A DNA stretch of 64,000 nucleotides from an uncultured Gammaproteobacteria bacterium (GTDB lineage Bacteria; Pseudomonadota; Gammaproteobacteria; Steroidobacterales; BM003). The first letter of the stretch is position 1. Each line of letters starts with the position of its first letter. The notes beneath the pieces were generated by a model. It was not told where the DNA came from, did not search any database, and was given only the letters and a program-made list of their open reading frames with translations. The stretch is from NCBI GenBank assembly GCA_963823435.1, contig CAWGLN010000001.1, positions 138,365 through 202,364 on the forward strand, given 5' to 3'. A program made the translations under genes and the position numbers. Positions 21,337-58,158 of this stretch are shown here, one piece after another.

Positions 21337-21423
21337 GGCAGACTCCTGCATCAATATTCGGTTACTCGAACGAGCCGGGGCATTCCGCTGGTTCATGCCA
21401 AGGCTGGAATAATCGGATCGTAG

Positions 21424-21461
21424 AAAAAGAAAAGGCCGCCGGTAACACTACCGGCGGCCTT
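21424..21461 (-). terminator. Rho-independent terminator downstream of the porin gene
   Basis: 13-bp perfect stem aaggccgccggta / taccggcggcctt with a 4-nt loop, followed on the minus strand by TTTTCTTTTT. Confidence 0.7.
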
Positions 21462-21499
21462 GTCTCTACTTTCACATGCACAAACCGGATTTGTACAAA

Positions 21500-22681: not shown

Positions 22682-22965
22682 TCCTTCTTTCCCCCCAATA
22701 GCGAAACAGGATGTAAGGACTGTTAATCCTCGTCGAATCATCATGGATGATCACACCTCCAGACCATTAGCCAATGGTCGTAGGTTCCTGAAGACCTGTT
22801 TGGACTCAATCCAGGATCAGGGTAAAAAATGCCCCGCCAGACATCCGGTGTGCGACGAAAGTATAATTGGACCCCACTAAACAGGGGGCAACACTTGGGT
22901 GATGTAACGGAGTGGCCCGCTCCGACCCCCTTATGTCCACGAAATATACTGCTGGGAGAGGCACC

Positions 22966-24913
22966 ATGAGCGAAGTACACGTCTACCCAATCAATAGCGC
23001 AATTGCGAAATCCGCCCATATGGATGAAGCCGGCTATAAGAAAGCGTACCGGCAGTCGGTGGAGCATAACGAGGATTTCTGGGCGGAAGCGGGCAAGCGC
23101 CTGGACTGGATAAAGCCCTACTCCAAGATCAAGGATGTCTCGTTTGACAAAGAGAACCTGCGTATACGCTGGTATTACGATGGCGTTCTCAACGTATCGG
23201 CCAACTGCATAGACCGGCACCTGGCCGACCCGGAAAGACCAGGTAGCGCTTATCTGGGAAGGCGACAATCCGGCCGAAGATGCCCATATTACGTATGGCG
23301 AATTGCACCAGCACGTTTGCCGGTTCGCCAACACCCTGAAATCCCTGGGCGTAAAGAAAGGTGACAGGGTCACCATCTATATGCCGATGATCCCGGAAGC
23401 CGCCTACGCGATGCTTGCCTGCTCACGTATCGGCGCCGTGCATTCAGTGGTATTTGGCGGCTTCTCGCCGGACTCCCTGGCAGGAAGAATCATCGACTGT
23501 GATTCACACATCGTCATAACCGCTGACGAGGGTCTGCGTGGCGGACGCACCATTCCCCTGAAGAAAAACGTGGACGCCGCGGCCGCCATTCCGGGTTGTG
23601 AAATACTTAAAACCGTCCTGGTGGTGCGCCGTACCGGCGGCAAGGTGGCCTGGACGGAAGGCCGTGATCACTGGTATCACGAAGCGAGCGCAGACCAGGG
23701 AGGGGATTGCCCCCCGGAACCCATGAACGCGGAAGATCCGCTGTTCATACTCTACACCTCCGGTTCGACCGGACAACCCAAGGGTGTGTTGCATACCACC
23801 GGTGGGTACCTGGTATACACATCCCTTACCCATGAACTGGTGTTCGATTACAAACCCGGCGATATCTACTGGTGCACGGCAGATGTAGGCTGGGTTACCG
23901 GGCACAGTTATATCGTTTACGGACCCCTGGCCAATGGCGCCACCTCGCTGATGTTCGAGGGCGTGCCTAACTACCCCTCGTTCTCGCGCTTCTGGGAGGT
24001 GGTCGACAAGCACAAGGTGAATATCTTCTACACCGCGCCCACGGCGATACGCGCCCTGATGCGAGAGGGCGCCGACCCGGTGAAGAAGACTTCGCGCAAA
24101 AGCCTGCGTCTGCTTGGAACCGTGGGCGAACCTATAAACCCTGAGGCCTGGGAATGGTACTACCACACGGTAGGCGACGCCCGCTGCCCCATCGTAGACA
24201 CCTGGTGGCAAACCGAGACCGGCGGTATTTTGATCAGCCCGCTGCCCGGCGCCACGGCCCTCAAGCCCGGCTCTGCGACCCGGCCGCTATTTGGCATCAA
24301 ACCGGCCTTGGTGGACAACGAGGGCGGAGTCCTTGAAGGAGCCAATGAAGGCAATCTCATCATCACAGATTCCTGGCCCGGCCAGATGCGATCGGTGTAT
24401 GGCGATCATCAACGCTTCATAGATACGTACTTCTCAACCTTCCCGGGAAATTACTTCACCGGCGACGGAGCCAAGCGTGACGAGGACGGTTATTACTGGA
24501 TAACCGGCAGGGTGGACGATGTCCTGAATGTCTCCGGCCATCGTATGGGCACGGCCGAAGTGGAAAGCGCGCTGGTGTCTCATCCCAAGGTCGCCGAGGC
24601 GGCTGTGGTAGGCTATCCCCACGACATCAAGGGCCAGGGTATTTATGTTTACGTTACCCTGGTGGCGGATGCGGAGCCCACCGATGAATTGAAGAAGGAA
24701 CTACGCAACTGGGTGCGCAAGGAAATCGGAGCTATCGCCTCCCCGGATCTTATCCAGTGGGCGCCGGGGCTTCCAAAAACGCGTTCCGGCAAAATCATGC
24801 GCAGGATCCTTCGCAAGATCGCGGCCAACGAATTCGAAAACCTGGGTGATACCTCTACCCTGGCCGACCCGGAAGTGGTTAAACAGTTGATCGAGAATCG
24901 CGCGAATAAATAA
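22966..24913 (+). pseudogene. acs: Acetyl-CoA synthetase, one apparent +1 indel (extra C in the CCC run near 23230)
   Basis: The ATG at 22966 has a GGGAGAG Shine-Dalgarno (MSEVHVYPI...NCIDRHLAD). The protein then continues in the +1 frame as [34 protein letters not shown]... (ORF 23303..24913) with [19 protein letters not shown] and [12 protein letters not shown]. Confidence 0.9.
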
Positions 24914-24923
24914 GGAACACCAA

Positions 24924-25598
24924 GTGGCCTTGCGCCTGGCAGAAAAGATCATCATAGCTGACGACCACCCCCTGTTCCGGGGAGCGTTAAGAGAAGCGGT
25001 CTTGAAGGCCTGCCCCGGGGCAGTCATCGTCGAAGCTGAAACCTTCGCGGAACTTCAGGCGGCGACGGACGAGCACGCGGATGCCGATCTTCTGCTGCTG
25101 GATTTGAATATGCCAGGCGCCAGCGGTTTTTCCAGCCTGATATACGTGCGTTCCAAGCACGGGAGTCTGCCTGCGGTGGTGATCTCGGCACTGGAGGAGA
25201 CCTGGGTGATACGTCGCGCTATCGCCCATGGCGCCGCCGGCTTCATACCCAAGTCGTCACCGGTGAGCGTGATCTCCGAGGCCTTGAAGGCAGTGCTTGA
25301 GGGAGACTGTTGGTTGCCCGCCGGCATCGACGCCACTGACGCCGCCCTGGATCAGGGCGAGCAAACAGTGGCAGACCGCCTGGCGCAACTTACGCCGCAG
25401 CAATTCAGGGTTTTCAGCATGCTGTCGGAAGGTTTGCTGAACAAGCAAATCGCCTATGAACTTGGGGTGTCAGAAGCCACCATCAAGGCGCACGTGACGG
25501 CGGTTATGAAAAAGCTCAAGGTAACCAATCGAACCCAGGCGGTTCTGGAAGCTACACACCTGGCGCTGGAGAGGAAGCTCGTGAACGATCCGGCCTGA
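24924..25598 (+). CDS. crbR: LuxR/FixJ-family response regulator (CrbR-like)
   Basis: 224-aa ORF with a GTG start. It has a REC domain (IIIADDHPLF...LLLLDLNMPG) and a C-terminal LuxR HTH (LTPQQFRVFSMLSEGLLNKQIAYELGVSEATIKAHV). It sits between acs and an SSF-domain hybrid kinase. Confidence 0.75.
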   Translation: MALRLAEKIIIADDHPLFRGALREAVLKACPGAVIVEAETFAELQAATDEHADADLLLLDLNMPGASGFSSLIYVRSKHGSLPAVVISALEETWVIRRAIAHGAAGFIPKSSPVSVISEALKAVLEGDCWLPAGIDATDAALDQGEQTVADRLAQLTPQQFRVFSMLSEGLLNKQIAYELGVSEATIKAHVTAVMKKLKVTNRTQAVLEATHLALERKLVNDPA

Positions 25599-25617
25599 CC
25601 AGGCGCCTGGTCAGGCC
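25592..25617. terminator. Perfect 26-bp palindrome shared by the convergent crbR and crbS 3' ends (candidate bidirectional terminator)
   Basis: ggcctgaccaggc|gcctggtcaggcc. It contains the TGA of crbR (25596-25598) and the TCA, reverse complement of TGA, of crbS (25611-25613). Confidence 0.4.
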
Positions 25618-28600
25618 TTTTCCCTACCCTGTAACAAGCTGGTCAGAGTCGCCCTCAAGGCCGCCGGTTTCACGGGCTTCTGCAACATCAAGAAGCCCGC
25701 CTCGCGAATCAACAATTTCACTTCATCGGAATTATCAGCGGTAATGAATGCACCTGGCACAGCCAGCCCCAGGTGATCGCCAAGAATCCGCACCACGTCC
25801 AGGCCGTTCTCTTGATCCAGGCGGTAATCGACCAGCATGGCGTCCGGGACCAGACCATCGGGCAGTAGTTGCAGCAACTCTTCGCTCGACCTGGCCCCGA
25901 TGACCTCGCACCCCCAACGCTGCAGCAAGGCCTGCATACCGTCCAGGATTTCCTGCTCGTTATCCACGCAAACCACCGTGGCGCCTGCAAGACGACCAAT
26001 CGGAATCTTGGGAGCTTCCACTTTTTGCCCCAGCACGACCTGGTTGACCGCCAGCGGCAAACTCACGGAGAACATACTCCCCTTGCCAAGCTGGGACCGC
26101 ACCAGCACTGTATGACCAAGCATTCGTGCAACGCGATCAACGATAGCCAGTCCGAGGCCGAGACCTTTCTCCTTGCCTCCGGGACCCAGCTCCAGGCGCT
26201 TGAACTCGACAAAAATATCCTGCAGGTTCTCCTCCGGTATGCCCTGGCCCTGGTCCCAGACCTGCACTTCTACCTGATCACCCCTTAGCCTCGCAGCAAC
26301 CAGTACCTTGCCATTTGCGCTGTAGCGAAAGGCATTGGCAATCAGGTTCTGCAATATGCGCCGCAAGAGCTGTCTGTCGGATTTCACCACGCAGTCGATA
26401 CCAGATCCCCGCAGCTCTATTTCCAGGCCGCGTGCCCGGGCCAGCGGGGAAAACTGCTCATGCAGGACCTGTAACAGGTCAGCCAGGCGGAACTGACTGA
26501 TCTCCGGCACCAGGGCGCCGCTGTCGAGCTTGGAAATATCCAGTAGCCCACCCAGCAAGTCCTCGGCCGCGGCCAGGCTGTTATCCACCCGGTCCACCAG
26601 CTTGGCCTGCTCCTGCGGCAGGCTTTCCGCCTGCTCAGCCAGCACTGATATAAACAGGCGGGCCGCATTCAAAGGTTGCAGGAGATCATGTGTCGCCGCA
26701 GCCAGGAAACGTGTCTTGCTGCGGTTGGCCGTCTCAGCCTCGGCCTTGGCTGCCTCCAGGTCATGCATGGCCTTGTGAAGCTCGTTGGTGCGCTCTCGCA
26801 CCCGCTGCTCCAGGTTGGACTTGGCCTCCTCCAGCGCAAGCTCGGCCCTGCGACGACTGGTAATATCCTGGAACATGGCATACAAACCGCTTACCTGTTG
26901 CTGCTCGTCGAACTCCGGGATGTATGTCCCTATGCAATACACGCTCTCCCCCGAGCGGGTCTGTATTGCGAGATCGAATTCCTGCCTTTGACCTGACAAG
27001 GCCCTCTCCAGATACTCCGAACGTTCCAGCAACTGGCCCTCGGATAGCACCTCGTCAACGCGCTTGCCTATCACCTGCTCGGCAGGAAGATTCACGTAAT
27101 CCAGGTAACTCTTGTTGGCGAATCGGAAATATTGATCCTTGTCCAGGTAACTGAGCATTAACGGAGCATTGTCCGTGTACATCCGGATATTGTGCTCACT
27201 CTCACGCAAGGCCTCCTCTACCCGCTTGTGCTCGGTAATATCCGTAAAGGTAGAAACATAGCCCCCACCCGGCATTCGGTTGCCGCGTATCTCGATTACC
27301 TGGCCATCCGGACGCTGACGCTCGTAGCGGTAATTTTCACCTCCCCGCATGCGTTCCAGTCGCCGTTCCACGTGCTCCGGCACCTCGCCAGGACCACACA
27401 GACCTCTTTCGGCGTTGAATCGAATCAATTCCTCAACCGGCCGACCCACAAAGACCATTCCTTCCGGGTAATTGAGTAGTTCAAGGTAGCGGCGATTCCA
27501 GCCCACTATCCGCAGGTCTTTATCCACTACGGCAACGCCCTGGCTGATGCTGTGCAGAGTCGCCTCCAGCAAGCGCCGGTTGAAGGTCACCGCATCGGCT
27601 GTCTGATCCAGCAAAGCCAGCATGTCGCCAATCGCCATGCCGGTTTTTCTCAAGGCAGCCGTGAGAACGGCCCGCGCCGAGGCTGATCCGATGGCGCCCG
27701 CCAGCAACCTCTCCGTGAAGCGGACGATTTCGCCATCGGCAAGTATCCCGGGATCCAGCGCCACACCCTTGTCTTTCTCGTACTTCTCGAAGGAGCGTTG
27801 CGTGTGGCGGCGCCCGACAAAGCGGGAAGCCAGGGCCTGCAAGTCTCTTACCGTGGCATGCTGCTGCCAGCGAGAGGGCAAGGACGGCGGGCGCCTGCGC
27901 GGATCCTCCACAAATGCCACGGCCTGCAACTGCTCACGCAGCGAGGGCGCCCACAAGGCAGAACCCACCACCAGTCCGATCACGTTAAGCGAAAGGGACA
28001 GGGCCACCCCGTGGGTGATGTGGGACATACCGCCCAACCCGAACAAGGCCTCGGGCCTGAGCCACTGCATGCCCCATATGCCGTTTGCTATCCACTGCAG
28101 GTCGCCACCGGCGGAACGCGCCAATCCGGGCAGCAACAGGGTATAGGCCCATGCCCCAAAACCCAGTCCCAGCCCCAGCAGGGCGCCACGTCGACTGGCA
28201 TTACGCCAGAACAAACCGGCAATAATCGCCGGGGCAAACTGGGCGACGGCGGCAAAAGACAGGAGGCCAATAGAAGCCAGTCCAGCCCCCTGGCCGGTCA
28301 ATCTGTAATACAGGTAGGCGGCCAGGGTCAGGGCAACAATGGTTGCCCGCCTGACATTCAGCAAAATTCGGCTCATGTCCTCGCGCAAGTGCAAGCCAAG
28401 AGACTTTGCGCCGAGCAGCAAGGGCAGGACGATATCGTTGCTTACCATCGTGGCCAGGGCCACGGTGGCCACGATTACCATTCCGGTAGCCGCAGAGAAC
28501 CCACCCAGGAAGGCGAACAGACCCAGCGTCTGGTTTCCATGCGCCAGGGGCAAGGCCAGTACAAATGTATCGGCGTTGATCTGGCCGGTGCCGAACACTT

Positions 28601-29504
28601 TCAAGCCAGCCATGGCGATCGGGGGTACCGCCAACATGACCACGGCCAGGTAAAGCGGAAACAGCCATCGAGCCATGCGCAGGTCTTTTTCTCCGGCGCA
28701 TTCAACCACGGCAACATGGTATTGCCTGGGTAGGCAAAACATGGCCGCCATGGCCAGAACGGTCTGGGCGAAAAACCCGCCGGGCATTTCCTGGGGAAGA
28801 AACAAGGAACTCATGTCCCGATCAATGACCATGGTCTCAAGCGCTTCCTTGTACCCACCAAGTACCCCGTACATGGCAAACACCGCCACTGCGACCAGGG
28901 CCAACAACTTGACCACAGACTCGGTCGCAATGGCCAGCATCATGCCGCGATGGTGTTCGGATGCGTCTATGTGTCGGGTACCAAAAAGGATGGCAAACAC
29001 CGCCAGCAACAGCGCCAAATAGAATGCTGTTGACGGGGTCCCGCCGCCGGCCGCCGCTGTACTACCAGTTAGAACATCGAAGGAGGTGGCCACGGCTTTG
29101 AGCTGAAGGGAGATATAGGGAATGATCCCGACCACGGCACTGACGGTCACCAGCACAGAAATACCCCTGGACATGCCGTAGCGAGCCGCAATGAAATCCG
29201 CGATGGTAGTGAGATTCTGCTTCTTGCTGACTTCTACAATCCGTCGCAAGACCTCCCATCCAAATACCCACATGAGGATAGGCCCGAGGTAAATCGGCAC
29301 ATAGCCCCAACCGGTAGATACCGCGGTACCCACCGCACCGTAAAAAGTCCAGGACGTGCAATAGACTGCCAGGGAAAGGCTGTACACCAGCGGCCCGTTT
29401 AATGGTCGCTTGCCTGCCGCATCCCTGCTATCGCCCCAGTAGGCAATCGCAAAGAGAAATCCAACATAGGCAAGTGACAGGGCAATCAGGATGCCTGTCT
29501 GCAA
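25611..29504 (-). CDS. crbS: Hybrid sensor histidine kinase with an N-terminal sodium:solute-symporter-like domain (CrbS/CbrA architecture)
   Basis: 1297-aa intact ORF with a TTG start preceded by AGGGGAGAG. The order is about 13 TM helices of SSF type, two PAS domains, HisKA (ATHDLLQPLNA), HATPase (GLGLGLAIVDR) and a C-terminal REC (VVCVDNEQEILD...LVDYRLD). Confidence 0.85.
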   Translation of the reverse strand: MQTGILIALSLAYVGFLFAIAYWGDSRDAAGKRPLNGPLVYSLSLAVYCTSWTFYGAVGTAVSTGWGYVPIYLGPILMWVFGWEVLRRIVEVSKKQNLTTIADFIAARYGMSRGISVLVTVSAVVGIIPYISLQLKAVATSFDVLTGSTAAAGGGTPSTAFYLALLLAVFAILFGTRHIDASEHHRGMMLAIATESVVKLLALVAVAVFAMYGVLGGYKEALETMVIDRDMSSLFLPQEMPGGFFAQTVLAMAAMFCLPRQYHVAVVECAGEKDLRMARWLFPLYLAVVMLAVPPIAMAGLKVFGTGQINADTFVLALPLAHGNQTLGLFAFLGGFSAATGMVIVATVALATMVSNDIVLPLLLGAKSLGLHLREDMSRILLNVRRATIVALTLAAYLYYRLTGQGAGLASIGLLSFAAVAQFAPAIIAGLFWRNASRRGALLGLGLGFGAWAYTLLLPGLARSAGGDLQWIANGIWGMQWLRPEALFGLGGMSHITHGVALSLSLNVIGLVVGSALWAPSLREQLQAVAFVEDPRRRPPSLPSRWQQHATVRDLQALASRFVGRRHTQRSFEKYEKDKGVALDPGILADGEIVRFTERLLAGAIGSASARAVLTAALRKTGMAIGDMLALLDQTADAVTFNRRLLEATLHSISQGVAVVDKDLRIVGWNRRYLELLNYPEGMVFVGRPVEELIRFNAERGLCGPGEVPEHVERRLERMRGGENYRYERQRPDGQVIEIRGNRMPGGGYVSTFTDITEHKRVEEALRESEHNIRMYTDNAPLMLSYLDKDQYFRFANKSYLDYVNLPAEQVIGKRVDEVLSEGQLLERSEYLERALSGQRQEFDLAIQTRSGESVYCIGTYIPEFDEQQQVSGLYAMFQDITSRRRAELALEEAKSNLEQRVRERTNELHKAMHDLEAAKAEAETANRSKTRFLAAATHDLLQPLNAARLFISVLAEQAESLPQEQAKLVDRVDNSLAAAEDLLGGLLDISKLDSGALVPEISQFRLADLLQVLHEQFSPLARARGLEIELRGSGIDCVVKSDRQLLRRILQNLIANAFRYSANGKVLVAARLRGDQVEVQVWDQGQGIPEENLQDIFVEFKRLELGPGGKEKGLGLGLAIVDRVARMLGHTVLVRSQLGKGSMFSVSLPLAVNQVVLGQKVEAPKIPIGRLAGATVVCVDNEQEILDGMQALLQRWGCEVIGARSSEELLQLLPDGLVPDAMLVDYRLDQENGLDVVRILGDHLGLAVPGAFITADNSDEVKLLIREAGFLMLQKPVKPAALRATLTSLLQGREKA

Positions 29505-29553
29505 GTGGAAACTCTCCCCTATTGAGTTGAGTTGATCAGGCGCAGCTAGATTC

Positions 29554-29718
29554 TACGGAGCCTCTGATTTGGTCTGGACGAAGTAGGTCGCTGGCGAAAA
29601 GATTCGGGTTCAAGGCGCCAATCGCACGGAATAGCGAGCTATTGCGAAGATTGGCAACATAGAAGCTGGAGCTTTTAGCCGCGAGATACAAGTTCATGAC
29701 CAGATCAGAGACTCCCTA
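29554..29718. repeat. MITE-like imperfect-palindromic element, copy R1 (A-to-B orientation)
   Basis: The termini tacGGAGCCTCTGATTTGGTC ... GACCAGATCAGAGACTCCcta are inverted repeats. Its two halves are partially complementary along the whole length. It is homologous to the copies at 33928..34104 (inverted) and 34829..34988. Confidence 0.8.
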
Positions 29719-29946
29719 ATACCATGGTCTAATAAGGCCCGCAAGCACAGGGTGGATTCGAAGCATTCGCCGCAACCCGACGATTATCGTCAGAAAAACG
29801 GTCATTACAGATAGACGGAATAACGCCCGGTCGGTCCCGGTTCAGCCCTCTAAGACTAAAGTAGGACTGCGCTGGCATAAGACCCTCAGCTAGATTGATC
29901 CTCGTTATAAATAGGGTCATAGCCACCAAAAGAGGGGGAGCGTCCC

Positions 29947-30207
29947 ATGAGTGGAAATAGCAAAGGGGCTGAATACTGGAAAAGAAACCTGAGCCTGATG
30001 ACGATCTGTCTGGTCATCTGGTTCGTAGTTTCCTACGTATTCGGAATTATTCTTGTAGAACCTCTGAACGCGATCAAGATCGGCGGGTATAAGCTCGGTT
30101 TCTGGTTTTCGCAACAGGGATCTCTCTACATTTTCGTCGTACTGATCTTCTACTACGCATCCAAGATGAATAAGTTGGATCGCGAATTCGACGTTCACGA
30201 AGACTGA
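29947..30207 (+). CDS. DUF4212 small membrane protein (putative solute:sodium symporter small subunit)
   Basis: 86-aa ORF with two TM helices, lying immediately upstream of an SSS-family permease. This is the conserved pairing for the family. Confidence 0.8.
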   Translation: MSGNSKGAEYWKRNLSLMTICLVIWFVVSYVFGIILVEPLNAIKIGGYKLGFWFSQQGSLYIFVVLIFYYASKMNKLDREFDVHED

Positions 30208-30220
30208 GGGGGGCGTAGCA

Positions 30221-32001
30221 ATGGATCTCAAGACATTAACCTTTATTGTCGTGGGCAGCTACTTTCGCCCTCTACATCGCAATTGCAATTTATTCCCGTG
30301 CCAAGAGCACAGGGGATTTCTATGTTGCAGGCAAGGGTATTCACCCGGTAGCAAACGGCATGGCCACGGCAGCTGACTGGATGTCGGCAGCATCATTCAT
30401 TTCCATGGCGGGCCTGATAGCCTTCCTTGGCTACGGCGGTTCGGTGTTCCTGATGGGCTGGACGGGCGGTTACGTGCTGCTCGCCATGTTGCTCGCACCC
30501 TACCTGCGCAAGTTCGGCAAGTTCACGGTTCCGGAGTTCATTGGTGAGCGTTATTACTCACAAAGCGCCAGGATCGTGGCTGTCATCTGCCTGATCGTTG
30601 CCTCTATCACTTACGTGATCGGGCAGATGAAAGGCATCGGTGTGGCGTTCTCACGATTCATGGAAGTGGATTTCACCCACGGCCTGATGGTGGGCATGGG
30701 TATCGTGTTCATTTATGCCGTGCTCGGCGGTATGAAAGGCATCACCTATACCCAGATTGCCCAGTACTGCGTGTTGATTTTCGCCTACACGATTCCGGCG
30801 ATCTTCATCTCCTTGCAGCTGACCGGCAATCCTATCCCGCAATTGGGATTGGGTAGCACCATGGCGGATGGCAGCGGCGTGTACCTGTTGGACAAGCTGG
30901 ATCTGATCGTGACCGACCTGGGTTTCAGGGAATACTCGACATCGTCCAACGGGAATATGCTTAACATGTTCCTGTACACACTGTCCCTGATGATCGGTAC
31001 CGCGGGTCTGCCCCACGTCATTATCCGTTTCTTCACCGTACCCAAGGTGCGGGACGCCCGTGCGTCAGCCGGCTGGGCATTGGTCTTCATCGCGATCCTG
31101 TACACCACAGCTCCGGCCGTGGGCGCCATGGCTCGCCTGAACCTGATCAATACTATCCAGACCGGTCCGGTAGGCTCTCCCACAGGCAATGTGCTGATAT
31201 CAGAACTGCCTGACTGGATGGGTCGCTGGCAGGCTACCGGCCTGCTGAACTGGGAGGACAAGAACGGCGATGGCCGTATCCAGTTCTACAATGAAGCAGG
31301 TATGGGTGACAAAGCGGCGGCCTATGGCTGGGCTGGCAATGAGATGACCAAGGTGGACAATGACATCATGGTGTTGGCCAACCCGGAAATCGCCGGTCTG
31401 CCCAACTGGGTGGTTGCCCTGGTAGCTGCAGGCGGTATTGCGGCGGCGCTGTCCACTGCGGCCGGTCTGTTGCTTGCCATCTCCTCGGCAATTTCTCATG
31501 ACCTGCTCAAGGGCGTGTTCATGAAGGATATTTCCGAGAAGAACGAGCTGATGGCAGGTCGTATCGCCATGGCCGGCGCCATTGTCGTGGCGGGGTACCT
31601 GGGTCTGAATCCACCCGGCTTTGCGGCACAGGTGGTGGCTTTGGCCTTCGGTCTGGCGGCCTCGTCGATTTTCCCTGCCCTGATGATGGGTATCTTCGAC
31701 AAGCGCGCCAACAGCAGCGGCGCCGTGGCTGGTATGTTGACCGGTCTGGGCTCGACCTTGCTGTACATCTTCTGGTTCAAGGGATGGTTCTTCATTCCTG
31801 GCACCGAGATGGCGGCCAATAACGCCTGCCAACTGGATCCTGGGTATTTCACCCGAGGCCTTTGGTGCGGTGGGTGCATTGCTTAACTTCGCGGTGGCTT
31901 ACGCGGTATCACACAATACTGCACCGCCTCCCGAGCACATCCAGCACCTGGTGGAAGACATTCGTATTCCGCGTGGCTCTGGTGGAGCAGCGGCTCACTA
32001 A
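30221..32001 (+). pseudogene. Sodium:solute symporter (SSS family, large subunit of the DUF4212-associated type, ActP-related), two apparent +1 indels near 30257 and 31827
   Basis: The ATG at 30221 gives MDLKTLTFIVVG. The frame then shifts into ORF 30246..31886 (ATFALYIAIAIYSRAK...VANGMATAADWMSAASFISMAG). The C-terminus (NWILGISPEAFGAVGALLNFAVAYAVS...GGAAAH*) is in a third frame that ends at 32001. Confidence 0.85.
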
Positions 32002-32026
32002 TCACACCCTGATGGTGTAATACAGC

Positions 32027-32064
32027 GGGGGGCATCCTGAACGGGATGTCCCCCGTTTCCTTTC
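32027..32064 (+). terminator. Candidate rho-independent terminator after the symporter
   Basis: 11-bp stem ggggggcatcc / ggatgtccccc (one G-U pair) with a 6-nt loop, followed by the T-rich gtttcctttc. Confidence 0.5.
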
Positions 32065-32088
32065 AGACTTCACCTGCAAGAATCTGCA

Positions 32089-33930
32089 ATGATTGAACTG
32101 ACTGAAATTCTCGACTTTTTCCTGGCCCACCCGCCATTTGACCAATTGCAGCGCGAGCAACTCAGGGAATGTCTGCGTGGGCTGCAAGCCGAATATTTTC
32201 CCAAAGGCGGTCAGATTCTGGAAATAGGGCAGGAAAATCACTTGCTGCACATCGTGCGCAGTGGCGCGGTGGAACTTCACGACAGTGACAATAGCCTGGT
32301 CGCCCGAATGAGTGAGGGCGAATCCTTCGGTTATATCTCGTCTGCTCAGCGGAAAACCGGTACGCTACCGCGCCGTGGCGGCCGAAGACGCGTTGATCTT
32401 CCACCTGCCAGCCGATTCGTTCGGGCAATTGAGGCGGGCGGCGCCTTCACTGGATCACTTTTTTACCGAGGCGTTTGCCGAAAGACTGAACATGGCGATC
32501 CGGGACAAGGGACCGGAGTGAGCTTGCCGCAACACGGCTTGGCGACCTGGCCCGGCGTGAATTGGTGCAAATGGACAGTGCCTCCTCGGTCGCGGACGTG
32601 GCCGCAATCATGACCGAGAAAGGCGTTTCTTCAATCTTGCTGAGCGAAGGTGGTGCCGTTGCCGGCATCCTGACCGACAAGGATCTGAGGCGACGGGTTG
32701 TTGCCACCCGCCTGCCCTACGACACGCCGGTGCGGGACATCATGACCCACGACCCGGTAATCGCCAGCCACGACTCCAACGTGGCCGAAGCGCTGCTGAT
32801 CATGATGCAGAGAAACATCCATCACCTTCCGGTGCTTCGGGACAAGGTACCTGTCGGCATGCTCACGCTTGCCGATCTGCTGCGCGCAGAAGCGGAACAC
32901 CCCATTTATATGGCCGGCGACATCCTCAAACAAGGCGACGCCGAAAGTATCGCCAGGGTGAGCAAGCGCCTGCCTGAACTGATTCAGAGAATGATCGGCG
33001 CGGACGCCACGGCCGACCAGATCGGCAAGGTCGTTACCACCGTGACCGATGCCATCACCAAGCGATTGATCCAACTGGCAATCACTGAAACTCGGCCCAC
33101 CACCGGTAAAATTCGCCTGGCTGGCACTGGGGTCCCAGGGTCGCCAGGAGCAGTCAGCAAAATCTGACCAGGACAACGCCTTGCTGCTGGATGATTCCTT
33201 CCTGCCTGAACACGATGCCTACTTTGAACAGCTCGGCAAGTTCGTCTCTGACGGACTGGATGCTTGTGGCTACGTATATTGTCCGGGCGATGTGATGGCC
33301 TCCAACACGCGGTGGCGACAACCCCTTAAAGTGTGGAAAGGCTACTTCAGACGCTGGATAGCAGAACCCGAGCCCAAGGCACTCATGTACGCCAATATAT
33401 TCTTCGATCTCAGGATCGTTGAAGGCCATGACGCACTGGTAAAGGAACTCAAGGAACATATCGCCGACCTGGCGCGCAAAAATCATTTCTTCCTGGCAAT
33501 GATGGCCAAGAATGCCATGGCATTTCAGCCTCCCCTTGGCTTTTTCCGCCAATTCGTTCTGGAAAAGGGTGGCGGACACGGTGATTCCCTGGATCTGAAG
33601 CACCGGGGCGTCATACCGATAGTGGAATTGGCCCGTATCTATTCCCTGGCGGGCGGTGAGGTCCGGGTCAACAGCCGACGCAGGCTTCGGGCCGCCGTAT
33701 TGACTGGCCAGATTACCGAGGGCACGGGCCGTAGTCTGGAAGACGCGCTGGAACTGATAGACTACGTTCGCATGAACCACCAATGGGAAGAAATGAAAAA
33801 CGGTCTGCCACCGAGCAACTATGTCCCGCCGAGCTTCCTGTCTCCCTTGCAGCGACAACACCTGAAGGCCGCCTTCAATGTGGTACGCACCGCCCAGGCT
33901 GCACTGTTGAACCGGTTTGGGTTGAACTAG
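32089..33930 (+). pseudogene. cNMP-binding / tandem CBS / DUF294 nucleotidyltransferase-domain protein, three apparent +1 indels near 32341, 32510 and 33090
   Basis: Four consecutive ORF pieces in frames 1, 2, 0, 1 read as one protein. They are the cNMP-binding domain (32089.. and 32312..32521), CBS pairs (32562..33167: VSSILLSEGGAVAGILTDKDLRRRV, NIHHLPVLRD), and DUF294 (GPPPVKFAWLALGSQGRQEQSAKSDQDNALLLDD... through 33181..33930). Confidence 0.82.
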
Positions 33931-34104
33931 GGAGCCTCTGATCTATTCATGAACCTGTATCTTGCGTCTAAAAGCCCCAGCTTCTGCGTTGCCAATCTTC
34001 GAAGTAGCCAATCTTCCAGTACCACTACTACGTGTGATTGGCGCCTTGAATCTGGCTCTTTCGCTCGCAATCTGCTAAGCCCAGAATAAATCAGAGACCC
34101 CCCA
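33928..34104. repeat. MITE-like imperfect-palindromic element, copy R2 (inverted relative to R1)
   Basis: The first ~82 nt match the reverse complement of the R1 right half with about a dozen mismatches: ctagggagcctctgatct...ttgccaatcttcg. The shared core is attggcgccttgaa. Its first three bases (TAG, 33928-33930) are the stop codon of the DUF294 gene. Confidence 0.8.
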
Positions 34105-34116
34105 GGAAGTACATCC

Positions 34117-34808
34117 TTGCTCCGATCGTTTATTGACAGACTGGCCAGGAAGCGGCTTTTAGCCAGCGCAAACTGGGAGCCCATGCGCGGGTTCCTGCTT
34201 TCAGAACCGCCTGACCGCCAGCGGTTCTGGAGGGACGTGGAACTGCTTGTCGCGGACCTCGAAACCACCGGACTGGATGCCAGGCAGAACCACATTGTCA
34301 GTTTTGGCTGGGTACTTATTTCAGGAGGCCGGATACATCTGGACCAGGCGCAACATATCGTGGTCCGATCAGGCACACCAATGAATCAAAGCGCCACCAT
34401 CCATGGTATTTTTGACAGCCACGTGGCCCAGGGAGTGACCATGGAATCGGCCCTGGCTGAACTTCTGGATCAGCTTCGTGGCAGGGTCCTGGTGCTGCAC
34501 CATGCCCCGCTGGACCAGGCTTTTCTAAACCAGGCCTGCATCCAGGTCTGCGGCCAGAAACTGGTGACGCCGATAATCGACACCATGGCCCTGGAGAAAG
34601 ACCCGGTTGGATCGACGTGACCAGCCGATCCAGCCAGGAATGCTGCAGGCTTGGCGCCGTGCGCGAACGCTATGGACTCGGCCCGATACGGGCGCACAAC
34701 GCCTTGACCGATGCCTTGGCAACGGCGGAATTGTTGCTGGCGATAATTGCCCATTCCGAAAGGGGCGGAGAACCTCTTCGATTGAAACACTTGCTTGCGC
34801 GTATTTGA
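34117..34808 (+). pseudogene. DEDDh 3'-5' exonuclease (DnaQ/epsilon-like), two apparent +1 indels near 34603 and 34646
   Basis: Exo I is VADLETTGLD and Exo II is HHAPLDQAFL, both in ORF 34117..34620. LDRRDQPIQPGML lies in frame 2. Exo III (AHNALTDALATAELL) lies in ORF 34617..34808. Confidence 0.8.
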
Positions 34809-34828
34809 GGACGCGCAAGCCTGACATT

Positions 34829-34988
34829 CCGGGAAGCCTCTGATCTTGCCCGGACTAAGTAGCTTGCTGGCAAACCGCAATTTTGAGGGGCCAATCTTAA
34901 GTGCCGGAGCCGGCTCGCCAGGACCGGCAAGATAGAAGCCCGGTCTATGTCGCAAGACACATTCATGACCGAATCAGAATCTCCCTAG
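34829..34988. repeat. MITE-like imperfect-palindromic element, copy R3 (same orientation as R1)
   Basis: gggaagcctctgatcttg...aagtagcttgctggc...ttcatgaccgaatcagaatctccctag aligns with R1 end to end. Its terminal CTA (34985-34987) is the stop codon (TAG) of the minus-strand KKAPA gene. Confidence 0.75.
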
Positions 34989-35584
34989 CGCTTCCTGCCG
35001 GCTTTTTTCTTGGCCGGAGCCTTCTTGGCCGGAGCCTTCTTGGCCGGGGCCTTCTTGGCCGGGGCCTTCTTGGCCGGGGCCTTCTTGGCTGGGGCCTTCT
35101 TGGCCGGGGCCTTCTTGGCCGGGGCCTTCTTGGCCGGAGCCTTCTTGGCCGGGGCCTTCTTGGCCGGGGCCTTCTTGGCCGGGGCCTTCTTGGCCGGAGC
35201 CTTCTTGGCCGGAGCCTTCTTGGCCGGAGCCTTCTTGGCCGGGGCCTTCTTGGCCGGAGCCTTCTTGGCCGGAGCCTTCTTGGCCGGGGCCTTCTTGGCC
35301 GGAGCCTTCTTGGCCGGGGCCTTCTTGGCCGGAGCCTTCTTGGCCGGGGCCTTCTTGGCCGGGGCCTTCTTGGCCGGAGCCTTCTTGGCTGGAGCCTTCT
35401 TGGCTGGAGCCTTCTTGGCCGGGGCCTTCTTGGCCGGGGCCTTCTTGGCTGGAGCCTTCTTGGCTGGAGCCTTCTTGGCTGGAGCCTTCTTGGCCGGGGC
35501 CTTCTTGGCCGGAGCCTTCTTGGCGGGCAAGGCCGGAACTTCTGCTTCCGACTCCTTTGCCACTTCCTCGATATCCAGACCCAC
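34985..35584 (-). CDS. Lys/Ala/Pro-rich (KKAPA)n histone H1 / AlgP-like basic protein; start uncertain (GTG at 35584 proposed; could instead be a C-terminal extension of adk)
   Basis: The minus-strand frame reads ...[21 protein letters not shown](KKAPA)x~35 KKKAGRKR*. All nucleotide variation among the repeat units is synonymous in this frame only. No ATG lies downstream of the adk stop. The GTG at 35584 is in frame, with AAGG 5 nt upstream. Confidence 0.6.
35011..35520. repeat. Tandem repeat: 34 exact-length 15-bp units (tggcYggRgccttct), plus degenerate units on each side
   Basis: Counted directly: 16 units c/G, 12 c/A, 5 t/A and 1 t/G. Only two positions per unit vary. All three plus-strand frames are also open, which produces the LLGRG and AGAFL shadow ORFs. 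Confidence 0.97.
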
Positions 35585-35627
35585 CGCTGCCTTGAGGGCC
35601 TTTTCTGCCTGCAGGCGCGCCTCAGAT

Positions 35628-36281
35628 TCAGCCAGGGCCGCCTTCAGACTCTTCTGCAGATCGCTTGAAAACGACCTCGGAATCACCCACGGCATCCACG
35701 GTATAAAGAATGCCCTGCTCACTGTAGTAGTCAACCAAAGGTCGCGTCTGACTTTCATAGACCTTGAGACGATTCTCGATGGTGGCCTCGGTGTCGTCCG
35801 CGCGCCGATGCAGGCGCCTGCCACATTTGTCGCAGACATTCTCCAGGATGGGCGGCGAGGTGTAGTAATTGAACACTGCCCCGCAACTACCACAACTCAA
35901 CCTGCCGGTCAGCCTTTGCATCAGGATATCGCTGTCCAGATCCATCAACAGCGTTGCCTGCAAAGGCAGACCGATCTGCTCCAGCATCCCGTGGAGGGCA
36001 CGGGCCTGGGCCAGGTTCCTGGGAAAACCATCCAGGATAAATCCCTTGCTGGCGTCTGGCTGCCGTAGCCTTTCCTCAATTATGCCCAGCACCAACTGGT
36101 CGCTGACCAATTGACCCGCGTCCATGGTGGTCTTGGCCTGGAGACCCAGTTCCGACCCTGAGGCTACCGCCTCGCGCAGCAAATCACCCGTGGAAATCTG
36201 GGGAATGGCATATTTTGTAACCAGTTTCTGAGACTGGGTACCCTTTCCAGAGCCCGGGGCACCAAGCATGACGATTCTCAT
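35628..36281 (-). CDS. adk: Adenylate kinase (last 13 codons as written are atypical; see findings)
   Basis: [16 protein letters not shown] (P-loop), [10 protein letters not shown], and a LID with CGSCG...CDKCG (Zn-type). The annotated frame ends [13 protein letters not shown]. The +1 frame instead encodes the Adk-like C-terminal helix [12 protein letters not shown]. Confidence 0.9.
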
Positions 36282-36475
36282 GGCAACATTCCTGAGGTAG
36301 ATGTAAGTGTGGGGCGTGCAGCCAATTCCACTCGCCCGTAGCAGGGGCTAACCTACATCCAGCACTTGCCAGCGTCAATTCACAAATGGTGTGAACCCTC
36401 GTTTCAGATCGGCTATGCTTTCCGTCGCAATGGGTACCCAGACCCCCTTTACGTGGAACTGGCAAGGAAACCAAA

Positions 36476-37738
36476 ATGTCTCGAAAAAATGCTTTTTACG
36501 CCCAATCCGGCGGTGTCACCGCTGTTATCAACGCCTCCGCCTGCGGTCTGATCGAAACAGCCCGCAAAAACCGCGACCGCATCGGCAAGGTTTACGCCGG
36601 ACGCGACGGCATTATCGGGGCTCTCACCGAGGACCTGATTGATACCAGCAAGGAAAGCGCCCGGGATATAGCCGCTCTCAAACACACGCCGGGTGGCGCA
36701 TTTGGTTCATGCCGGTACAAGCTCAAGGGTCTGGAGGAGAATCGTGCCCAGTACGAGCGTCTTATTGAGGTCTTTAAGGCCCACGATATCGGTTATTTTT
36801 TCTATAACGGCGGCAACGACTCCATGGACACCGCCCACAAGATATCCCAGATCGGCAAGACCCTGGGTTATCCCATAATCTGTGTGGGTATTCCGAAAAC
36901 CGTCGATAATGACCTGCCGATCACCGATAACTGCCCGGGTTTCGGCTCGGTGGCCAAGTACATTGCCGTCTCTACCAAGGAAGCAGCCATGGACGTATTG
37001 TCCATGTCCCGGACCTCCACCAAGGTATTCGTGCTCGAGGTCATGGGCAGGCATGCGGGCTGGATCGCTGCCGCAGGCGGTCTGGCAGCCGAGGGGCCTG
37101 GCGATGCGCCACATATCATCCTGTTTCCCGAGGTGGCCTTCGACCAGGAGGCCTTCCTGGCCAAGGTGAAGAACACCGTGGAAACCCGAAGCTACTGCGT
37201 GGTCGTAGTCTCCGAGGGTGCCCGCTACGCCGACGGTCGCTTCCTGGCCGATGCAGGAAGCAGAGACGCCTTCGGTCATGTGCAGCTGGGTGGCGTGGCG
37301 CCGGTGGTTGCCCAGATGGTCCGGGACAAGCTCGGCTACAAGTACCACTACGCGGTGGCCGATTACCTGCAGCGCTCGGCCCGCCATATTGCCTCCCAGG
37401 TGGACCTGGAGCAGGCTTATGCCGTGGGTGAGGCGGCTGTGAAACTTGCCCTGGCGGGCAAGAATGCAGTGATGCCCATCATCGTTCGCAAAGCAGAAAA
37501 CCCTTATCGCTGGGGTATTGGCGAGGCCAAACTGGCCCGCGTGGCCAACAAGGAAAAAACCCTGCCCAGGCGCTTTATCACCCGGGACGGCTTCGGAATT
37601 ACCGCAGCCGCACGCCGCTACCTGGAGCCCTTGATCGTGGGCGAAGCCTATCCGCCATACAAGAACGGTACTCCCAGCTATGTGCGTCTGAAAAATCTGC
37701 CTGTCGCCAAAAAGCTCGGGACCGACTTCGTGGTATAG
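36476..37738 (+). CDS. pfp: Pyrophosphate-dependent 6-phosphofructokinase (PPi-PFK)
   Basis: 420-aa PfkA-family ORF. It has GGNDS in place of the GGDGS of ATP-PFK, and PKTVDNDL in place of PGTIDND. This puts Asp and Lys at the two positions (E. coli 104 and 124) that are diagnostic for PPi use. It is adjacent to an H+-PPase. Confidence 0.8.
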   Translation: MSRKNAFYAQSGGVTAVINASACGLIETARKNRDRIGKVYAGRDGIIGALTEDLIDTSKESARDIAALKHTPGGAFGSCRYKLKGLEENRAQYERLIEVFKAHDIGYFFYNGGNDSMDTAHKISQIGKTLGYPIICVGIPKTVDNDLPITDNCPGFGSVAKYIAVSTKEAAMDVLSMSRTSTKVFVLEVMGRHAGWIAAAGGLAAEGPGDAPHIILFPEVAFDQEAFLAKVKNTVETRSYCVVVVSEGARYADGRFLADAGSRDAFGHVQLGGVAPVVAQMVRDKLGYKYHYAVADYLQRSARHIASQVDLEQAYAVGEAAVKLALAGKNAVMPIIVRKAENPYRWGIGEAKLARVANKEKTLPRRFITRDGFGITAAARRYLEPLIVGEAYPPYKNGTPSYVRLKNLPVAKKLGTDFVV

Positions 37739-37950
37739 TGCCGTGCTTTTGAAATAGCGGCCCATAAACACGGGCTTCCGGCACCAACAATGCCCACCCG
37801 GGCCCCTTTCTTGGGCGGACCGGGTAAGGCCGACAGGATTTTGCGGATACCCGTCATATTAATAAGGCCCGGGATACTGCAACATGAGCACCCGGTCACT
37901 GCCTGAGTAAGGCGGTAACCGGATACATTTTTAACTTGGGAGGGAGAAGC

Positions 37951-39969
37951 ATGTCACAGCAGACGGCGCTAATGTTGGCGTTGGGTGCATCCATACTCGC
38001 GGTAGTCTACGGACTGTTTTCCGCACAATGGATTCTCGGCAAAAGTGCGGGCAATGAGCGTATGCAGGAGATCGCGGGAGCGATTCAGGAAGGCGCCAAT
38101 GCCTATATGAATCGCCAATACACCACGATCGGCATAGTGGGCGTTGTTCTTTTCGCGGTCCTGGCGGTATTCCTGCCCAGCATCTGGACCGCCATCGGAT
38201 TCGCCATAGGCGCGATCTTCTCCGCCCTGGCCGGCTATGTCGGCATGTTTGTGTCCGTTCGCGCCAATGTGCGTACGGCCGAAGCAGCCAGGGAAGGCCT
38301 GAGTCCGGCCCTGCTGGTCGCTTTCCGCGGCGGCGCCATCACCGGCATGCTCGTGGTTGGCCTGGGTCTGATGGGCGTGGCCGGCTACTACTGGCTGATG
38401 ATTAGCCAGGGAGTTGCGCACCCGGTAGAGGCCCTGGTTGGCCTGGCTTTTGGCGGCTCCCTGATTTCCATTTTCGCCCGATTGGGTGGCGGCATCTTCA
38501 CCAAGGGCGCCGACGTGGGCGCTGACCTGGTGGGTAAGGTCGAAGCCGGTATTCCCGAGGACGATCCGCGCAACCCGGGCGTCATCGCGGACAACGTGGG
38601 CGACAACGTGGGTGACTGCGCCGGCATGGCTGCCGACCTGTTTGAGACCTATGCGGTGACCCTGATCGCCACGATGCTGCTTGGCGGACTGATGATTAAC
38701 GAGATTGGCCCCAATGCGATAATCTACCCGATCGTGCTGGGCGCCGTGTCCATCGTGGCCTCGGTCATAGGCACCTTCTTCGTACGTGCCAGCGAGGGCG
38801 GCAAGATCATGACGGCCCTGTACAAGGGCGTCTTTGTTTCCGGCATCCTGGCGGCCATAGCCTTCTATCCCGTGACCAATACGCTGATGGCGGAAGGCGG
38901 TCAGGCCATGGACCTCTACTGGGCGGCCCTGATTGGCCTGGCCCTGACCGCGGCCATGGTGGTTATCACCGAGTACTACACCGGCACCGAGTACAGCCCG
39001 GTGAAGAAAATCGCTGAAGCCTCCCTGACCGGTGATGCCACCAACATCATTGCCGGCCTGGGCGTGTCCATGAAATCCACTGCCCTGCCGGTAATCGCGG
39101 TGTGTATGTCCATCTGGGGCGCCTACGAACTGGCTGGCCTGTATGGCATCGCAGTTGCTGCCACCTCCATGCTGTCCATGACCGGTATGATCGTGGCCCT
39201 GGACGCCTTCGGCCCCATCACCGACAACGCCGGTGGCATCGCTGAAATGGCAGAGCTTCCGGCGGACGTACGTAACGTCACCGACGCGCTGGACGCAGTG
39301 GGTAACACCACCAAGGCCGTGACCAAGGGCTACGCCATCGGCTCGGCGGGACTGGCTGCACTGGTGCTGTTTGCTGACTACACGCACACCCTGGAAAAAG
39401 GCGGTCATGCCGACCTGTCCTTTGACCTGTCCAACCCCTCGGTGATCATCGGCCTGTTTATCGGCGGCATGGTGCCCTACCTGTTCGGCGCCATGGCGAT
39501 GGAAGCGGTAGGTCGTGCGGCCGGCTCGGTGGTGACCGAAGTTCGCCGCCAGTTCCGTGAAATCCCGGGCATCATGGAAGGCACCACCAGGCCCGACTAC
39601 TCCCGTGCGGTGGACTTGCTGACCCGTTCGGCGATCAAGGAAATGATCGTGCCTTCGCTGCTGCCCTTGTTGGTACCGGTAGTTGTCGGCCTCTTGCTTG
39701 GCCCGGTAGCACTGGGTGGTCTGCTCATGGGTACCATCGTCACCGGTTTGTTCGTGGCCATATCCATGACCACCGGTGGTGGCGCCTGGGATAACGCCAA
39801 AAAGTATATTGAGGATGGCAACTGTGGCGGCAAGGGTTCCGATGCCCACAAGGCCGCTGTTACCGGTGACACCGTGGGAGACCCCTACAAGGACACCGCC
39901 GGTCCGGCCATCAACCCGTTGATCAAGATCATCAACATTGTGGCCCTGCTGATCATCCCCCTGCTCTAG
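37951..39969 (+). CDS. hppA: Membrane-bound proton-translocating pyrophosphatase
   Basis: ORF 37936..39969. The ATG at 37951 has a GGGAGGGAG Shine-Dalgarno. It has the H+-PPase motifs [48 protein letters not shown] and [13 protein letters not shown]. Confidence 0.95.
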
Positions 39970-45045: not shown

Positions 45046-46352
45046 GAGGCGTCGGGGAAAAGATCCGCGAGCAGCGGCTGCAGCAAACCAAGCAGTCGAG
45101 GCAACGTCTCCCGATTCTCGGCCAGCACTTTCAATCCCGCGGTAGCGAGTTGCGCGCGCGCCGCGGGATCATCAAGTAACACCTGGACCTCGGCCGCAAG
45201 ACCGGGCGATCCCTCGACAACCCGCATGGCCCTGGCCTGCAAAAACAACTCGGTAATATCCGCAGCATTGAAGTTATGCGGGCCAACCACCACCGGCACA
45301 CCAAGGGAGGCAGGCTCCAGCAGGTTGTGACCGCCGATGGACACCAGGCTGCCGCCCACGAAGGCCACATCCGAGGCCGCATAAAACATCATCAACTCCC
45401 CCAGGGTATCCACCAGCAGCACCTCGGTTTGCGCCTCCGGGGACTCGCCCAGACTGCGGCGGCGGCAGCTAAAACCGGCTTTCTCCACCAAGGCCGCCAC
45501 CCCGTCGAATCGCTCTGGATGCCTGGGTACAAGTATCAAAAGGGCCTGCGGATTATGCTCCAGGAGCCGCCTGTGGGCCTCAAGCACCAATTCTTCCTCG
45601 CCCTCGTGGGTGCTGGCCGCCAGCCAGACCGATCGATCCGCCATATGGGCCTTGCGGTAGGCCTTGCCCCGCTCCGCCACGTCGGCGGCTGACTCAATGC
45701 CAAACTTGATGTTTCCCACAACGTGGGTTCGCAGAGGATTGGAGCCTATGGAAAGAAATCGTTCGGCATCCTGCTTGCTCTGGGCTGCTATTACTATTCC
45801 ATGCGACAGCGTCTGGCGAAATAACTCTACCAGTAGGCGGTACTTCTTCACGGACCGTTCAGAAACCCGGGCATTGGCCATGACCAGGGGAATGCCGCGA
45901 CGACCACATTCATGGTAAAGATTTGGCCAGATCTCGGTTTCCATGATGATCGCCAGGCGAGGATTGAAGCGATTAAAGAATCTCTTCACCGCGCCCGGCA
46001 GATCATAGGGCACATAGCTATGCATGACGGTGTCCCCAAACAGCGCACGCGCCCTGTCCGCGCCGGTGGGGGTCATGGTCGTAATGACCAGGGGCACCCC
46101 CGGCTTGCGCTCCATCAGGAGCGAGATCAGAGGCGCCGCGGCCTGCACCTCGCCGACTGATACAGCATGTACCCAGATACTGGGCTTGTCGGTCCGCGCC
46201 CGACCAAAGCCCAGGCGCTCGTCCAGGCCTTTCCAGTAACCGTGGTTGGAAAATCCTTTTTTTATCAGGAAAGCGAATACCAGCGGTGCCACGAGCAGCG
46301 ACAAGATGACGTAGGCGAAGCGCAGCAGCCCGGCCTTGAGATCACGGTTCAC
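45042..46352 (-). CDS. waaA: 3-deoxy-D-manno-octulosonic acid (Kdo) transferase
   Basis: 436-aa ORF. It has an N-terminal membrane anchor, [11 protein letters not shown], and the GT30 C-terminal domain ([17 protein letters not shown]). Confidence 0.9.

Positions 46353-56484: not shown

Positions 56485-58158
<1,674 letters not shown>

Follow-up and report, generated by a model that had tools for sequence, protein, structure and literature searches.

The adenylate kinase gene and its probable C-terminal extension

The window, which is the whole 64-kb stretch of DNA analysed here, carries on its minus strand an adenylate kinase gene (adk) that, as written, runs from 36281 to 35628 and specifies a product of 217 aa, stopping after 10 out-of-frame residues. 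The catalytic domain, codons 1–207 (35661..36281), was delimited by Pfam, NCBIfam, a PDB match and tblastn, and it is followed by a single extra nucleotide (35660..35660, where the window reads AAGCGATCTGCAG) that was located by DNA alignment with relatives and by a frame jump in tblastn. Beyond this base, on the same strand, lie a linker of 45 codons with a net charge of about −3 (35525..35659), conserved in relatives in frame with Adk; 34 units of 15 bp encoding (KKAPA)34 (35012..35521), identified by reading the units and by Tandem Repeats Finder; and the C-terminal end of the tail, KKKAGRKR and a stop codon (34985..35011), read from the sequence and in frame with the array. The array-bearing ORF (35893..34985) extends, in a different frame, over the 3′ end of adk. 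If base 35660 is removed, the parts join into one protein of 431 aa, made up of Adk (residues 1–207), the 45-aa linker and a 179-aa tail. The tail consists of one Ala, (KKAPA)34 and KKKAGRKR, with a net charge of about +74, and the whole 431-aa protein has a pI of 10.35 and a net charge of about +69.

The Adk domain matches Pfam ADK (4.2e-55, 186.5 bits; cut-off 26.8) and ADK_lid (1.1e-11, 44.9 bits; cut-off 26.6), and scores 276.5 bits against the NCBIfam adk equivalog NF001380 (cut-off 251), covering model positions 1–214 of 216. Residues 1–212 align end to end with canonical adenylate kinases of the long type with a zinc lid (Bacillus 1zin and 5g3y), the closest PDB structure being 5g3y (5e-72), and they share with these the P-loop, the cysteines of the lid and the catalytic arginines; the canonical enzyme ends at about 214–217 aa, whereas the tailed Adk is about 215 residues longer. 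In an alignment of 30 sequences, the P-loop (GxPGxGKGT) occupies residues 7–16, with G7–Q16 invariant save for residue 11, and R36, R88, R123, R127, R160, R171, C130, C133, C150 and C153 are likewise invariant. The window Adk has the P-loop, all of these arginines and the cysteines of the Cys4 lid. Judged by these matches, the N-terminal 207–214 residues are an adenylate kinase of the long type with a Cys4 lid, and are predicted to catalyse ATP + AMP = 2 ADP.

The linker is in frame with Adk in seven related sequences (P0001, P0002, P0004, P0005, P0006, P0121 and the locus L003). An AlphaFold2 model of one of them, P0001, computed with the 30-sequence alignment, gives the Adk fold a pLDDT above 90 and shows the last Adk helix unbroken over residues 201–234, through the linker, also with pLDDT above 90; the tail has a pLDDT of about 40 and is without secondary structure. 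This prediction was made on the homolog and not on the window protein, the tail of which, on this model, is probably disordered as well. The earlier note, made from the DNA alone, had described an acidic, coiled-coil-like segment ahead of the array. The segment exists and shares the frame of the array; because of the P0001 model, it is read here as the extended last helix of Adk with a short acidic spacer. The basic C-terminal end also has counterparts in the relatives, which finish in KKKG[SG]KKR (P0004, P0005, P0006, P0122 and P0123), KARKR (P0001) or SARRR (P0002).

The KKAPA repeat array

The array comprises 34 head-to-tail units of 15 bp on the minus strand (window 35521..35012) with no length variation, each reading AAG AAG GCY CCR GCC in the K-K-A-P-A register; the copy number of 34 depends on an assembly with demonstrable indel errors. 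Tandem Repeats Finder places the repeat at 35007–35524 with a period of 15, 34.5 copies, 95% matches, 0% indels and a score of 875. There are four unit types, AAGAAGGCCCCGGCC (16 copies), AAGAAGGCTCCGGCC (12), AAGAAGGCTCCAGCC (5) and AAGAAGGCCCCAGCC (1). The number of units, their uniform length and the 16/12/5/1 distribution agree with the first description of the array, the coordinates of which (35011–35520) were one base off.

Only column 9 (T/C, 17:17) and column 12 (G/A, 28:6) of the unit vary. Both are third positions of four-fold degenerate codons, so KKAPA is encoded by each of the 34 units, and the observation that variation between units is purely synonymous holds throughout. From that pattern it had been argued that the array is translated in this frame and under selection or gene conversion at the protein level. 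The frame is borne out, since relatives carry the linker and a Lys/Ala-rich tail in it, but the argument for selection is weak: the chance of two variable sites both landing on third positions is about 1 in 10.

The array is beyond chance. Just one other tandem array occurs in the 64-kb window, a short and ordinary 9-bp/27-bp repeat with which groEL ends (56491–56553, minus strand) and which encodes the usual Gly-Gly-Met (GGM) C-terminal tail. The plus-strand ORFs that run through the adk array were considered and set aside as shadow frames without homolog support.

A single extra base interrupts the reading frame

When the window is aligned with the DNA of four related loci (L001–L004), it is longer by exactly one base at the junction of Adk and linker, which in those loci reads AAGCG-CCTGCA or AGAAG-GTTACA without such a base. 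Tblastn searches with the Adk of relatives recover residues 1–207 in one frame and then jump frame exactly at 35660. A closer comparison is offered by L163, a locus from another metagenome assembly that matches the window at about 98% identity across 21 kb and encodes P0121 (468 aa), the second member of the 90% cluster of the window Adk; at about 2% divergence it represents a different population from that of the window. Its junction, AAACGC-CTGCAG (AAACGCCTGCAG), is in frame.

The extra base in adk has company. Relative to L001 and L002, seven frameshifts occur in four consecutive genes of the window (one in adk, two in the RNase T-like gene, three in the DUF294 gene and one in the SSF/actP-like gene), at positions 31828, 32341, 32513, 33083, 34600, 34646 and 35660, and each is a private 1-nt extra without a counterpart in L163. 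The L163 sequence has private indels of its own where the window is intact, namely three in the SSF gene, a split of the histidine kinase gene and one array unit of 13 nt, and no frameshift is common to the two. Two further genes of the window, encoding PFOR (about 6.8–7.1 kb) and a TolC-like OEP (about 43.8 kb), are also split. The protein 3′ of each window break is still 72–91% identical to relatives. The extra bases of the window are mostly outside homopolymers, unlike the classic nanopore error pattern.

Non-overlapping single-base indels in conserved housekeeping genes of two near-identical genomes argue for consensus errors and not for pseudogenes. The split at 35660 is, on this comparison, very likely an assembly artefact, and the source assembly is probably of an indel-prone, long-read type. 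With so many indels, ORF-based annotation of the contig will under-call gene lengths. The 217-aa annotation of Adk in the public record would go back to the 1-nt error, and the fusion is hence invisible there. Elsewhere in the window, an hldE-like ORF (46349–47485) aligns with the PfkB profile from position 154 onwards only, and a Mur-ligase ORF (14917–16170) reaches no further than position 75 of the 127 in the C-terminal domain; these two ORFs are probably also broken by frameshifts of this type.

It is unlikely that the extra base is instead a true mutation of the strain, in which case the cell would make a tailless Adk of 217 aa, the last 10 residues of which are aberrant, and the array would be a very recent, untranslated relic. 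The base is present in the sequence as given, the NCBI and ENA records carry the 217-aa product (P0003), and most bacteria normally have a tailless Adk. However, the array and the basic C-terminal end are still perfectly in frame and show no decay, and at least nine more breaks in the window (six near adk, and those in the PFOR and TolC-like genes) would have to be real too, even though the protein past each of them keeps its identity to relatives. L163 has no extra bases at the sites it covers, yet is broken elsewhere.

With the split attributed to a consensus error, the KKAPA product of the earlier note becomes a C-terminal tail of adenylate kinase and not a free-standing protein; the 1-nt insertion at 35660 detaches it from its enzyme. 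The reading frame and the type of tail had been recognised correctly; the gene assignment had not, as the tail belongs to Adk and its separate ORF results from a probable 1-nt error.

Tailed adenylate kinases in related genomes

Homologs were searched for with the Adk domain joined to the linker as the query. The nearest, at 84–90% identity, are single proteins of 310–392 aa (P0001 and P0002, 392 aa; P0004 and P0006, 338 aa; P0005, 310 aa; P0123, 384 aa) in which Adk is followed by this linker and by a Lys/Ala-rich repeat tail; a stretch containing AVGD.E.VF[KR] precedes the repeats, and a basic end such as KKR or RKR closes the protein. In all close relatives (84–98% identical, L163 included), Adk, the helical linker and the tail lie in one reading frame. 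C-terminal tails of 40 aa or more are found in 111 of the 120 best Adk homologs, with a median length of 113 aa and a composition of 38.5% K, 23% A, 7% V and 7% P; a large clade of uncultured Gammaproteobacteria has retained the tail. By these homolog sequences, tailed Adk is widespread in that group. The database names of the homologs say just 'adenylate kinase'.

The window's own genome is absent from the GTDB representative genomes, where the nearest matches are two MAG contigs that break off within the tail, and the metagenome contigs contain no copy at the identity level of the window, the closest match being 89%. Assembly trouble at the repeat had been anticipated, and the relatives bear this out: four short-read contigs, L003, L004, L083 and L087, stop within it. 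Short-read MAGs systematically truncate tailed adk genes at the repeat.

One curated protein model for Adk is also of unusual length. NCBIfam NF010381 (PRK13808) is an 'adenylate kinase' equivalog of 335 positions, far longer than a normal Adk. The window protein scores 187 against it, far under the cut-off of 426, and NF010381 may already model a C-terminal extension of Adk from another lineage.

Tail turnover and copy number

Across the family, the composition of the tail is conserved, and its sequence and repeat period vary. Tandem periods of 15, 18, 27, 30, 33, 36 and 42 bp were found in the tails of relatives, all of them multiples of 3. Sister species (89–90% Adk identity) have the unit AAG AAG GCT NNN GCC, with non-synonymous changes at codon 4 that give P, S, T or A. 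The array of L163 has 40 units, dominated by GCT-CCA, and the same two variable sites as the window, in which GCC-CCG and GCT-CCG dominate the 34 units. Within one 90% cluster, the tails differ by whole repeats, resulting in proteins of 310, 338 and 384 aa. The suggestion that an array of this kind might vary in length between strains is upheld among relatives, both by these variants and by the difference between 34 and 40 units.

The other three synonymous third positions of the unit are invariant in 34 units of the window and 39 of L163 (73 in all), while the flanks are about 2% divergent, which argues that the units have been kept alike chiefly by concerted evolution through slippage or unequal exchange. 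Recent expansion and concerted evolution would, on this comparison of arrays, mainly account for units that are so nearly uniform, and the probable targets of selection are the composition, charge and frame of the tail. As the unit is 15 bp long, a change in copy number alters the length of the tail without breaking the frame. A phase-variable (contingency) locus was also considered and rejected: with periods of 15–42 bp, all multiples of 3, it is the tail length alone that changes. In L163, unit 12 of the 40-unit array (10925–10937) is 13 nt long, so the deposited P0121 reads (KKAPA)11–12 followed by (QEGSS)n; this short unit is probably a consensus error, and illustrates the way in which arrays of this type can give rise to misleading proteins in databases.

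The many indel errors in the assembly, and the breaking of the short-read assemblies of relatives in this region, might suggest that the length and uniformity of the array are themselves products of assembly collapse or expansion and not the true state of the genome. This is improbable, as the independent assembly L163 shows the same unit and the same two variable sites in 40 copies, the sister species share the 15-bp unit, and long reads should easily span 510 bp. Given the units of L163 and the sister species, neither the presence nor the nature of the array is in doubt; the uncertainty is confined to the exact copy number.

Other readings of the array-bearing frame

The ORF at 34985–35893 contains GTG and ATG codons 5′ of the linker, and free-standing H1-like proteins such as Hc2 are known (PMC2848022), so that the array could in principle belong to an independent histone H1-like gene with an internal start within the 3′ end of adk. 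Against this, the upstream part of the ORF consists of conserved Adk codons translated out of frame, and all relatives are Adk fusions. No Shine-Dalgarno-like sequence was seen, on reading by eye, ahead of the candidate ATG (ACCGTGGATG), and a scan of 34600–36600 for promoters and terminators called none, hence no promoter-like site either. As no homolog begins there and neither a ribosome-binding nor a promoter-like signal accompanies it, an internal start was rejected as very improbable.

Programmed +1 ribosomal frameshifting between Adk and linker, which would give a short and a tailed Adk from one mRNA, fits the two overlapping frames and the full-length product that a +1 shift would yield, but it is hardly credible and was rejected because the conserved two-frame arrangement of such genes occurs in no relative examined (L001–L004 and the ~98% identical L163 all read through the junction in frame) and because other genes of the window show 1-nt extras of like kind. 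Judged against +1 frameshift sites in general, the junction, TTC AAG CGA TCT, lacks both a slippery site and a stop-codon motif like that of prfB.

Similarity to known lysine-rich tails

The tail, with 179 aa of terminal K/A/P tandem repeats and a charge of +74, has the features of H1-like tails, and the resemblance to histone H1 and AlgP pointed out earlier is confirmed as one of composition, with matches to Pfam HC2, NCBIfam Rv3852_fam and H1-like models. Pfam HC2 scores 79 bits (cut-off 40), a composition-driven match, and Rv3852_fam 107 bits (cut-off 100). The NCBIfam models histone_lik_HC2 (36 bits; cut-off 135) and hist_H1_lk_Burk (69 bits; cut-off 80) stay under their cut-offs. Since these curated Hc2 and Burkholderia H1-like models failed, the tail shares a tail type with such proteins and not family membership.

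Among the closest parallels are AlgP (AlgR3) and PhaF of Pseudomonas, which have KPAA/AAKP repeats in a long C-terminal, predicted-disordered Lys/Ala/Pro tandem-repeat tail. The overall charge of AlgP is about +55, compared with about +69 for the tailed Adk, and both systems are mutational hot spots with respect to the number of repeats. The N-terminal partner in the tailed Adk is a complete metabolic enzyme, unlike the helical domain of unknown function or the phasin found in AlgP and PhaF, and its unit is a KKAPA pentapeptide with two lysines in place of the KPAA of AlgP. The likeness is compositional, without specific homology. Of the known analogues, the KPAA tail of AlgP has been studied best: it localises AlgP to polyphosphate granules, the spacing of which depends on it (PMC9239181), and binding of DNA by a C-terminal domain fragment of AlgP and by KPAA-repeat peptides is attributed in that paper to earlier work that it cites.

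Lysine-rich pentamer repeats in strain-variable number, as in the tailed Adk, are reported for Chlamydia Hc2 (hctB) and for the H1-like proteins of Burkholderia and Bordetella (PMC2848022). Those proteins are small, free-standing and nucleoid-associated, whereas the tailed Adk is an enzyme fusion. In mycobacteria, the PAKKA-type tails of DNA enzymes such as Ku, and Rv3852, are examples in which a lysine-rich low-complexity repeat tail on a folded protein modulates polyanion binding (PMC3553676). The Ku partner already acts on DNA, unlike Adk, and the organisms are Actinobacteria and not Gammaproteobacteria. To our knowledge, Adk has no nucleic-acid substrate. A literature search on KKAPA-like repeats gave mostly noise, together with papers on mycobacterial HBHA and Rv3852.

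Lys/Ala/Pro repeat tails are thus known from nucleoid proteins, granule organisers and some DNA enzymes, and here one is found on a central enzyme of energy metabolism. A limited literature search turned up no paper in which adenylate kinase bears a lysine-rich or disordered tail; the tail type is known, and its presence on a core metabolic enzyme is new with respect to the literature found.

Proposed role of the tail

The reading we favour, with a probability of about 0.7, is that the array is the coding sequence of a polycationic tail of adk, the gene being a single ORF split by a consensus error and the tail an electrostatic tether. The gene would then be one ORF of 431 codons from 36281 to 34985 on the minus strand, and the extra base at 35660 an error of an indel-prone assembly. 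A disordered tail with a charge of +74 is expected to bind polyanions, which makes a tether its likeliest role. By analogy with AlgP, PhaF and histone H1, the tail would most likely hold Adk on a cellular polyanion and so concentrate it there, candidates being nucleoid DNA, RNA or ribosomes, and polyphosphate granules. Equilibration of AMP, ADP and ATP would in this way be placed at sites where nucleotides are consumed or regenerated, and the strength of binding would be set by the length of the tail.

A more specific and rather doubtful version is that the tail docks Adk on polyphosphate granules or on polyphosphate-nucleoid condensates, where it would form, with polyphosphate kinase or polyphosphate:AMP phosphotransferase, a localised module converting polyphosphate and AMP to ATP, the repeat number tuning the residence time on the granule. 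Regeneration of ATP from polyphosphate and AMP by Adk together with either of these enzymes is the subject of work listed in the references of two reviews (PMC3163519 and PMC8776046), and this role makes a granule-tethered Adk an attractive reading. No polyphosphate genes occur among the ORFs scanned in the 64-kb window, and the conserved neighbours of adk are pyrophosphate enzymes. Were such a module to exist, it would buffer energy in a spatially organised way in sediment Gammaproteobacteria that depend on pyrophosphate enzymes as well. More generally, if the tethering reading is right and the tail localises Adk, whether to the nucleoid, ribosomes or polyphosphate, it would provide a simple and evolvable spatial organisation of nucleotide homeostasis, and a tractable test case in which the length of a disordered tail tunes localisation.

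Intergenic features and neighbouring genes

A perfect 9-bp inverted repeat (GCTTGCGCG, 10 nt, CGCGCAAGC; 34793..34820, no strand assigned) was read from the sequence between the convergent adk-tail and RNase T-like genes, and may form a hairpin at a shared transcript end. The terminator scan did not call it, because it is without a T run. The GCTTGCGCG arm is also present in L163, directly past the stop codon of the gene. About 184 bp (34823–35006) separate the stop codon of the tail from the shared inverted repeat in the window; in place of this segment there are about 27 bp in L163 and 20–60 bp in L001 and L002. The 184-bp spacer has no second copy in the window or in the compared loci and no Rfam match above threshold, the Rfam scan of 34500–36600 having returned just two sub-threshold chance matches.

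On the other side, the tailed adk is divergent from, and adjoins, genes for a PPi-dependent phosphofructokinase and an H+-pyrophosphatase (window 36476–39969; also in L001, L002 and L163–L167), and a soluble pyrophosphatase is often beside it as well. This neighbourhood is kept in genomes down to 60–64% Adk identity. In six Magnetococcales loci (L012, L015, L016, L018, L024 and L031), a tailless adk also adjoins the H+-PPase gene, and the adjacency may reflect a link in AMP and PPi recycling that is independent of the tail.

Directly downstream of the tail lies a neighbourhood for acetate use (window 19429–34808). It includes two AMP-forming acyl/acetyl-CoA synthetases, a DcaP-like porin, a LuxR-type response regulator, a hybrid histidine kinase, a DUF4212 protein with an SSF (actP-like) permease, and a DUF294 CBS nucleotidyltransferase with the RNase T-like exonuclease. 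The synthetases yield AMP and PPi, which fits the adjoining adk and pyrophosphate genes.
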